The notes under the pieces: model-generated
The model's database searches: none
Told to the model about the DNA's origin: nothing
Seen by the model: only the letters and a program-made list of their open reading frames with translations
Program-made: the position numbers and the translations under genes
Assembly (NCBI GenBank): GCA_027492035.1
Contig: JAOZFT010000004.1
Coordinates: 320,001 to 384,000, forward strand
Direction: 5' to 3'
DNA from: Thermoproteota archaeon
GTDB lineage: Archaea; Korarchaeota; JAOZGF01; JAOZFZ01
Length of the DNA stretch: 64,000 bases
Shown here: in pieces, positions 3,856 through 46,234 of the stretch
Layout: the number at the start of each line of letters is the position of its first letter
Position numbering within the stretch: position 1 is the first letter of the stretch

Positions 3856-3954
3856 GCCGCCGTAGCTCAGCCGGTAGAGCGAGGGACTTGTAATCCCTTG
3901 GTCGAGGGTTCAAAAACCTGTGTGTTTCCCAGGTTGGGAATCCCTCCGGCGGCT
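3856..3954 (+). tRNA. tRNA-Thr(TGT), 26-nt intron at 59/60 (3915-3940)
   Basis: Cloverleaf; BHB TTCA-AAA-ACCTG...CAGGT-TGGG-AAT in T loop. Confidence 0.93.
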
Positions 3955-6973: not shown

Positions 6974-7066
6974 TGCGGGGGGAGGGATTTGAACCCTCGC
7001 AGGACTGAACCACCAGATCTCTAATCCTTGAGTCTGGCGCCTTTAACCTGGCTCGGCAACCCCCGC
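6974..7066 (-). tRNA. tRNA-Leu(CAA), 8-nt insertion/intron at 37/38 (7019-7026)
   Basis: Type II cloverleaf; CCAGA CT CAA G[GATTAGAG]A TCTGG. Confidence 0.88.
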
Positions 7067-9969: not shown

Positions 9970-10052
9970 TGGACCGGGCGGGATTCGAACCCGCGTTCAC
10001 TGCCTCTTTCTTCTATGCGAAGGCAGCGTGTTTCCACCTGCACCACCGGCCC
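9970..10052 (-). tRNA. tRNA-Ala(CGC), 10-nt intron at 37/38 (10006-10015)
   Basis: G3:U70 pair; CTGCC TT CGC A[TAGAAGAAAG]A GGCAG. Confidence 0.9.
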
Positions 10053-10205: not shown

Positions 10206-10299
<94 letters not shown>

Positions 10300-14292: not shown

Positions 14293-14390
14293 AGCCCTGG
14301 GAGGGATTCGAACCCTCGGCCTGCTGCTTTCTAGTTCGTTACGAGGATCGGCTTCTTGAATCAGCCGCTCTACCGCTAAGCTACCAGGGC
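14293..14390 (-). tRNA. tRNA-Thr(CGT), introns at 30/31 (14347-14361) and 37/38 (14329-14339)
   Basis: Mature arm GCTGC CT CGT AA GCAGC; BHB CGGC-TGA-TTC..GAA-GCCG-ATC. Confidence 0.9.
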
Positions 14391-35135: not shown

Positions 35136-35224
35136 GCAGCCGTGGTCTAGCCAGGTAGGACGGGAGATTCATTGAACCCAAGCCCCCCAAGCTCCCAACG
35201 CGGGTTCAAATCCCGCCGGCTGCA
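35136..35224 (+). tRNA. tRNA-Gly(CCC), 16-nt intron at 30/31 (35167-35182), C33
   Basis: Mature arm GGAGC CC CCC AA GCTCC; BHB CGGG-AGA-TTC..GAA-CCCA-AGC. Confidence 0.87.
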
Positions 35225-46147: not shown

Positions 46148-46234
46148 TGGGCCCGGCGGGATTTGAACCCGCGACCACCGGCTTTCCCCATTATTTAGAA
46201 GGCCGGTGCGCTATCCTGACTGCGCTACGAGCCC
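46148..46234 (-). tRNA. tRNA-Arg(TCT), 12-nt intron at 37/38 (46184-46195)
   Basis: CCGGC CT TCT A[AATAATGGGGAA]A GCCGG. Confidence 0.92.

Follow-up and report, generated by a model that had tools for sequence, protein, structure and literature searches.

An 8-nt insert at position 37/38 of the sole tRNA-Leu(CAA) gene in a korarchaeal assembly as a candidate minimal bulge-helix-loop intron

The window analysed is a stretch of 64 000 nt corresponding to positions 320001–384000 of contig C9 of the source assembly (G000). This assembly comprises 1.87 Mb in 42 contigs, with a G+C content of 36.6 % and a completeness of 93 %, and was archaeal by its rRNA and signal recognition particle (SRP) RNA matches. 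On the minus strand of the window, positions 6974–7066 were identified as tRNA-Leu(caa) by ARAGORN, which reported the insert as i(39,8) when introns were allowed. The same positions matched the Rfam tRNA family RF00005 with 47.4 bits, compared with a gathering score of 29 (E value 5e-07 for the window and 3.5e-9 for the genome). The acceptor, D and T arms were regular, the variable region was 14 nt long and the discriminator base was A, in agreement with an earlier note on this DNA that had described the gene as intact apart from its anticodon loop. The 5-bp anticodon stem (7033–7037 paired with 7013–7017) encloses 15 nt instead of seven. These are nt 32–37 of the tRNA (7027–7032), eight extra nucleotides (7019–7026) and nt 38 (7018). 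Removal of the eight nucleotides in silico gave an 85-nt sequence that was again called tRNA-Leu(caa) by ARAGORN and that carried the anticodon CAA in a 7-nt loop. When the gene is read on the minus strand, the insert is thus 8 nt long, lies at 37/38 and possesses neither an intronic helix nor a 5′ bulge, as had been claimed. The tRNA-Leu(CAA) gene with its 8-nt insert is real. In the 3′ exon, six of the eight differences from the orthologue in a second species of the class (G001) were located in the variable arm, and the other two formed a single compensatory pair in the T stem. The features of the gene and of related loci are listed in Table 1.

Table 1. Coordinates of the tRNA-Leu(CAA) gene, its parts and related loci (window positions unless a contig is given; nt, nucleotide of the tRNA)
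Feature	Position	Strand	Basis or remark
tRNA-Leu(CAA) gene, 93 nt with intron	6974–7066	−	ARAGORN; Rfam RF00005; A73, long variable arm
5′ exon, tRNA nt 1–37, 40 nt	7027–7066	−	40/40 identical to G001 orthologue
Anticodon CAA, nt 34–36	7028–7030	−	
8-nt putative intron at 37/38	7019–7026	−	15 nt between stem halves; removal gives 85-nt tRNA-Leu(caa)
3′ exon, nt 38–73, 45 nt	6974–7018	−	37/45 identical to G001 orthologue
Central helix H, 5′ strand, nt 32–35	7029–7032	−	Pairs with 7021–7024
Central helix H, 3′ strand, intron nt 3–6	7021–7024	−	Register common to 137/164 positions in 41 introns
3-nt bulge with 3′ splice site: intron nt 7 and 8 plus nt 38, AG|A	7018–7020	−	
4-nt loop: nt 36, nt 37, intron nt 1 and 2; putative 5′ splice site 7027/7026	7025–7028	−	Bulge-helix-bulge geometry
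tRNA-Ala(CGC), 10-nt canonical intron (gene 9970–10052)	10006–10015	−	Same bulge-helix-loop type
tRNA-Thr(CGU), two introns: 14347–14361 at 30/31, 14329–14339 at 37/38	14293–14390	−	
tRNA-Arg(UCU), 12-nt canonical intron (gene 46148–46234)	46184–46195	−	Same bulge-helix-loop type
EndA, 378 aa, two-unit chain	G000:C9:442896–444029	+	Outside window; PF01974 ×2, PF02778 ×2

A pattern combining the class-II D arm with the CAA anticodon arm had a single match in G000, and five Leu genes, one for each of the anticodons UAA, CAA, UAG, CAG and GAG, were recovered when the ends of the gene itself served as a fuzzy query. The gene is therefore the only Leu(CAA) gene in the assembly, a point that the earlier note had put up for verification. 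UUG is in use as a codon in G000, where it accounted for 2564 of the 17 578 Leu codons (14.6 %) in 477 ORFs of at least 150 aa on contig C9. A second Leu(caa) gene, reported by ARAGORN as i(36,26) at window positions 14293–14390, was rejected: its variable region is short and it has U73, and the orthologue (G001:C172:14783–14869) reads as Thr(CGU) with U73 and a 15-nt intron. Read as tRNA-Thr(CGU), the G000 gene has introns of 15 nt at 30/31 and 11 nt at 37/38, which leave between them a 7-nt micro-exon bearing the anticodon.

The genes for Leu(UAG) (C9:261513–261646, minus strand), Leu(GAG) (C9:398443–398558, minus strand) and Leu(UAA) (C9:224512–224619, plus strand) each contained two introns, one in the D arm or at 30/31 and one at 37/38, and Leu(CAG) was the only intronless Leu gene in G000. 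Of the 39 Rfam tRNA matches in the assembly, 38 fell in the part of contig C9 from 30 kb to 448 kb. A single match, Gly(GCC) on contig C40, came from the remaining 41 contigs, which total 1.2 Mb and have the same G+C content and similar ORF cover. The tRNA genes of G000 thus seem to be restricted to a single region of approximately 420 kb. Comparison of 34 tRNA upstream regions for a promoter signal was uninformative, since A+T-rich boxes occurred throughout.

In the archaeal bulge-helix-bulge (BHB) motif the exon–intron borders lie between residues 2 and 3 of both bulges flanking the central helix (PMC4307357). Applied here to an intron of n nucleotides at 37/38, this rule has nt 32–35 of the tRNA paired with intron nucleotides n−2 to n−5; in this register intron nucleotides n−1 and n together with nt 38 make up the 3′ bulge, and nt 36, nt 37 and intron nucleotide 1 make up the 5′ bulge. 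Applied to tRNA-Leu(CAA), the rule places nt 32–35 opposite intron nt 6–3, giving C:G, U:A, C×U and A:U, the only pairing in the BHB register. This is exactly the mismatched 4-bp helix closed by a 4-nt loop that had been noticed before. The site is not, however, structureless, since both the 3′ bulge and the central helix are kept in the register shared by 41 introns of the class; the earlier description had included neither the placement on the minus strand nor the regular 3-nt 3′ bulge. Cuts after nt 35 or nt 36 were also considered. They would yield an identical mature sequence because AG is repeated at both intron borders, but no helix was found in the corresponding registers and only 37/38 fits the BHB geometry.

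The site departs from the strict BHB motif (hBHBh′), which has two opposite 3-nt bulges, a central helix of 4 bp and flanking helices of at least 2 bp. In tRNA-Leu(CAA) only the 3′ bulge is present, three of the four positions of the central helix pair (C34 and its partner U being unpaired), and, whilst the anticodon stem provides helix h, a helix h′ is impossible with 8 nt. The insert does possess the elements of the relaxed motif (hBH/BHL), namely a helix of four positions with a 3-nt bulge at one end and a loop at the other, at 37/38. With its putative 5′ cut site in the 4-nt loop, which is closed by a single A:U pair, the insert has the form of a minimal hBH/BHL intron.

In order to place the site among those of related genomes, canonical introns were parsed with a stem-and-anchor script from the Rfam tRNA matches of the class, which comprises three species (G000, G001 and G002, with 39, 21 and 20 matches, respectively) within a phylum of 43 comparison genomes. 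This gave 41 introns, 18 from G000, 12 from G001 and 11 from G002. The set does not include the G000 genes for Trp and Lys(CUU), the gene at window positions 35136–35224, a gene on G001:C174, both G000 Pro genes (in which the intron comes after the anticodon stem) and matches for which no locus was returned. The G000 introns of Leu(UAG) (20 nt) and Ser(UGA) (12 nt), which were found later, are likewise outside the set.

Pairing in the BHB register was present at nt 32, 33, 34 and 35 in 39, 39, 34 and 25 of the 41 introns, respectively, a total of 137 of 164 positions. The five other registers, with 0, 1, 2, 4 or 5 unpaired 3′ nucleotides, gave 67, 79, 79, 61 and 66 of 164. Reassigning the introns to other tRNAs by shuffling lowered the total to a mean of 106.5 (SD 4.2), and 137 was not attained in any of 5000 shuffles. 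Restricted to nt 34 and 35, the count was 59 in the real set and 33.9 on average (SD 4.1) in the shuffled sets, and 59 was likewise attained in none of the 5000. The sequences are related and the shuffles therefore overstate independence, but the contrast between registers is unaffected by this. Nucleotide 32 covaried with its partner, C:G being found 31 times and U:A seven times among the 41 introns. The bulge was AA|A in 22 of the 41 and AG|A in seven, and the central helix had four pairs in 16 introns and three pairs in 19. The Leu(CAA) intron, with three of four pairs and an AG|A bulge, belongs to the shared register.

Short introns are the rule in this class, in which canonical introns are generally miniaturised. 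The 41 introns included one of 8 nt, five of 10 nt, seven of 11 nt, seven of 12 nt, one each of 13 and 14 nt, two of 15 nt, four each of 16 and 17 nt and three of 19 nt; the longest measured 20, 21, 26, 45, 46 and 50 nt (one each). Twenty of the 41 (among them the five of 10 nt) were thus no longer than 12 nt, a length that leaves no room for an intronic helix, so that all of these are of the hBH/BHL type. The 10-nt introns were those of Ala(CGC) in G000, Ser(UGA) and Leu(UAG) in G001, and Asn(GUU) and Val(UAC) in G002. Lengths also differed between orthologues, with 10, 16 and 11 nt for Ala(CGC) and 16 and 10 nt for Val(UAC). The Leu(CAA) intron itself measured 8 nt in G000 and 12 nt in G001, at the same site and with the same bulge.

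Elsewhere in the phylum, Leu(CAA) was intronless in the 34 genomes of family f3 that matched the pattern, and two complete f3 genomes had 45 tRNA matches each, of which only three to four were longer than 90 nt. Two other families of the phylum were intron-rich. In two further genomes (G020 and G026) the parser returned 22 plausible canonical introns of 10–56 nt from 42 long tRNA matches, including one 10-nt intron in each, in Glu(CUC) of G020 and in Ser(UGA) of G026. Seven 10-nt introns, below the published minimum of 11 nt, were therefore present in five genomes of the phylum. No 9-nt intron was found in the five genomes parsed, and the single 8-nt intron stands below the seven of 10 nt. A search of genome contigs with the arm pattern, allowing 0–30 inserted nucleotides, gave eight stretches, seven of them intronless and one with a 12-nt insert, and no second 8-nt copy among these records, from which near-identical ones were perhaps omitted. 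The same pattern in metagenome contigs gave eight stretches, all intronless and none of the 8-nt form, with the same possible omission of near-identical records.

The splicing endonuclease (EndA) of G000 was identified as two PF01974 (tRNA_int_endo) domains in one frame of 379 codons, with no other match in the genome. Separate subunit genes, as expected for an (αβ)2 enzyme, were absent. The predicted protein instead has the organization of an α′2 enzyme, with a degenerate N-terminal unit and a catalytic C-terminal unit in one chain: Tyr, His and Lys at the positions aligned to 2cv8 were found only in the C-terminal unit. The C-terminal half was closest to the α subunits 2cv8, 3p1z_B and 2zyz_B of Sulfolobus tokodaii, Aeropyrum pernix and Pyrobaculum aerophilum, respectively (E values from 4e-35 to 6e-27), and the N-terminal half resembled the structural β subunits 2zyz_A and 3iey_B. 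The loop around Lys44 of 3p1z_B (A. pernix) could be aligned without gaps with the G000 enzyme, including a K-P motif. This loop is an insert of approximately 10 residues relative to the two-unit EndA of Methanoperedens, and it contained the lysine in all seven members of the phylum that were aligned.

The loop confers broad specificity on EndA, and cleavage within the loop of BHL substrates depends on its lysine (Hirata 2011, PMC3241643); relaxed introns are described as efficiently removed only by loop-bearing EndAs (Kaneta 2018, PMC5829648). The EndA of G000 possesses the Crenarchaea-specific loop (CSL/L1) with its lysine, as expected for a host of BHL introns. Removal of the 37/38 BHL intron of a full-length pre-tRNA has been reported even for the α′2 enzyme of A. 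fulgidus (Hirata 2019, PMC6379350). The possibility that a two-unit, loop-bearing EndA is special to the class with mini-introns was ruled out: a full-length EndA match was found in 41 of the 43 genomes, which makes the enzyme a trait of the phylum and not of the class. The occurrence of the two-unit form across the phylum fits a remark in PMC5829648 that the Korarchaeota are an exception within the TACK archaea to the (αβ)2 type. The ligase RtcB was also found in G000 (578 bits).

The folding of the 25-nt anticodon arm was predicted with ViennaRNA. The BHL register had an energy of −1.1 kcal/mol, the stem alone −3.1 kcal/mol and the minimum-energy fold −8.8 kcal/mol. In the last of these, nt 32–34 pair with intron nt 8–6 (3 bp), nt 38 forms a 1-nt bulge and the loop comprises 8 nt. 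In most of the other mini-introns the BHL register was within about 1.5 kcal/mol of the minimum. By this prediction the free anticodon arm of tRNA-Leu(CAA) disfavours the BHL register, and EndA would need to trap the productive fold or bring it about. Further points that weigh against easy splicing are the mismatch in the central helix and the single A:U pair that closes the loop. Presumably, too, one nucleotide is no substitute for the helix that flanks a true bulge, and a 4-nt loop could hardly reproduce canonical bulge geometry at the 5′ site. The G001 orthologue had the same competing fold (−8.2 compared with −5.7 kcal/mol), which indicates that the competitor predates the shortening of the intron and is an old feature of its GAGAG-like 3′ end.

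The account that we hold with moderate confidence is of a genuine, functional tRNA-Leu(CAA) gene, present in one copy, that carries a miniaturised 8-nt hBH/BHL intron, and on the sequence features described above the intron is probably spliced. In the proposed pathway, nt 32–35 of the pre-tRNA would pair with intron nt 6–3, so that intron nt 7 and 8 and nt 38 would form a 3-nt bulge adjoining the anticodon stem, with the 5′ junction (nt 37|intron nt 1) in the 4-nt loop. The 378-aa EndA, presumed to act as a dimer of chains with a structural N-terminal and a catalytic C-terminal unit, would then cleave at the two junctions, leaving RtcB to join the exons into the 85-nt tRNA with a normal 7-nt anticodon loop. 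Transcription, cleavage within the 4-nt loop and ligation are all steps that we infer for this gene.

More tentatively, it is possible that the EndA of this lineage needs only the 3′ bulge and a short helix, the geometry of the dimer placing the 5′ cut irrespective of the RNA structure there. Should dimer geometry suffice, canonical introns would be free to shrink to a floor, with a minimum of 7 nt, and Leu(CAA) is at 8 nt. The Leu(CAA) insert would then be a natural minimal substrate of the archaeal splicing endonuclease and an archaeal counterpart of eukaryotic cutting at a structureless 5′ site.

It is also conceivable, but we think unlikely, that the gene is disabled, the intron having shrunk below the limit that EndA can process; the loss would be recent and UUG would be read by tRNA-Leu(UAA), which is encoded at C9:224512–224619 and might do so by wobble. 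The poor energy of the BHL register relative to the competing fold is what such a gene would be expected to show, and so is the isolated position of the 8-nt insert below the 10-nt introns, but the presence of the same competing fold in G001 means that it is older than the shortening. Intact exons are compatible with a recent loss of function. They are, however, free of decay and include a compensatory pair in the T stem, and the insert has kept the 3′ bulge and three of the four helix pairs. The gene is moreover the only one with a CAA anticodon, and UUG makes up 14.6 % of the Leu codons counted.

An indel in assembly or sequencing, by which two to four bases of a true intron of 10–12 nt were lost from the consensus, was judged distinctly improbable. 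The 8-nt form was seen in one metagenome-assembled genome (MAG), and the other canonical introns parsed in five genomes were all at least 10 nt long, as this explanation would predict. Against it, the eight nucleotides contain no run of more than two identical bases, the gene lies inside a 666-kb contig, and 72 % of this contig is occupied by ORFs of at least 150 aa, a cover that speaks against indel errors being widespread. The free variation in the lengths of the orthologous Ala(CGC) and Val(UAC) introns indicates, in addition, that changes of length are natural in this class.

Decoding by tRNAs requires a 7-nt loop with U33 and a purine at position 37. The alternative raised in the earlier note, an unspliced tRNA that functions with an anticodon loop of 15 nt, is barely credible and found no support, since a 7-nt loop is restored only by taking the insert out, and the insert carries the bulge and helix signature of 40 other introns of the class, which makes sense only as a cleavage signal and is hard to reconcile with unspliced function.

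The miniaturised intron that we favour resembles the hBH/BHL introns of Crenarchaeota and Thaumarchaeota in its position at 37/38, in the 3-nt bulge next to the anticodon stem, in the helix of four positions, in the 5′ junction placed in a loop and in a host EndA with the specific loop and lysine. It differs from them in that the helix is mismatched and the EndA is a single two-unit chain instead of separate α and β subunits; with only 8 nt, moreover, the loop is limited to 4 nt and intronic structure is impossible. Helix h, the 3-nt bulge, the central helix and the putative cut between residues 2 and 3 are shared with the strict hBHBh′ motif as described in PMC3978253 and PMC4307357, whereas the second bulge and h′ are absent because 8 nt leaves no room for them. 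As in introns processed by the eukaryotic tRNA splicing endonuclease (TSEN), described in PMC4090602, a very short BHL element lies at 37/38 with the 5′ site in an unstructured loop. TSEN, however, has four subunits and measures from the mature domain, whereas the G000 enzyme is of archaeal type, with no sign of a ruler. The earlier suggestion of a ruler-like mechanism as in TSEN is thus possible, but it is not required, given that the known relaxed hBH/BHL motif is cut by loop-bearing EndAs (PMC3241643, PMC5829648).

In the compilation of Yoshihisa (2014, PMC4090602) tRNA introns range from 11 to 129 nt in archaea and from 6 to 133 nt in eukaryotes, and the limit of around 11 nt for archaea given in the earlier note agrees with this. 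The shortest intron given for Cyanidioschyzon in PMC3728597 is 11 bp. BHL introns described as ‘very short (5-7 nt)’ are mentioned for pre-tRNAs of A. pernix in section 17 of PMC3241643, there without a list, gene or reference. The Leu(CAA) insert agrees with this remark in being a BHL intron of at most 8 nt in a genome with a loop-bearing EndA. The remark is in conflict with the compiled range of 11–129 nt, and introns of 5–6 nt cannot have the BHL geometry of Leu(CAA), in which a 4-bp helix plus bulge requires at least 7 intron nucleotides. It was the only mention of an archaeal tRNA intron below 11 nt found by text searches of the literature, and further short introns may be listed in the supplements to the tRNAscan-SE 2.0 and Asgard papers. 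The claim that 8 nt falls below the known minimum therefore stands with respect to the compiled 11 nt, but the A. pernix remark and the 10-nt introns in five genomes make the gap to what is known smaller than was first assumed. The Leu(CAA) insert looks like the shortest hBH/BHL intron found, that is, the smallest of a known relaxed type and not a new element.

If the intron is spliced, the size limit for archaeal tRNA introns, 11 nt in the compilation, falls to within a single base of what the geometry permits, and the pre-tRNA provides a natural substrate that forces the 5′ cut inside a 4-nt loop. It would thereby bear on the question of whether EndA needs a structured 5′ site or whether the 3′ bulge-helix half together with dimer geometry is enough. 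If it is not spliced, Leu(CAA) is a tRNA gene in the course of dying.

Gene finders and compilations may under-report tRNA introns of 10 nt or less. In G000 the intron placements of ARAGORN were often wrong; the gene at C9:146368–146454 (plus strand), for example, was called Cys(gca) with an intron at 39 but reads as Arg(GCG), the intron being a canonical one of 12 nt and the discriminator G. Another tRNA, on the plus strand at window positions 35136–35224 (48.4 bits), was reported by ARAGORN as ‘???’ (tcat) or SeC. The anticodon resembles CAU, positions 31:39 clash as A×G, and an insert without placeable borders is present; the gene may be that for elongator Met or Ile2. Two partial Rfam tRNA matches covering model positions 8–63 were also present on the plus strand of the window, at 3863–3921 and 10229–10291, and look like tRNA genes with introns close to their ends that set the acceptor strands apart.
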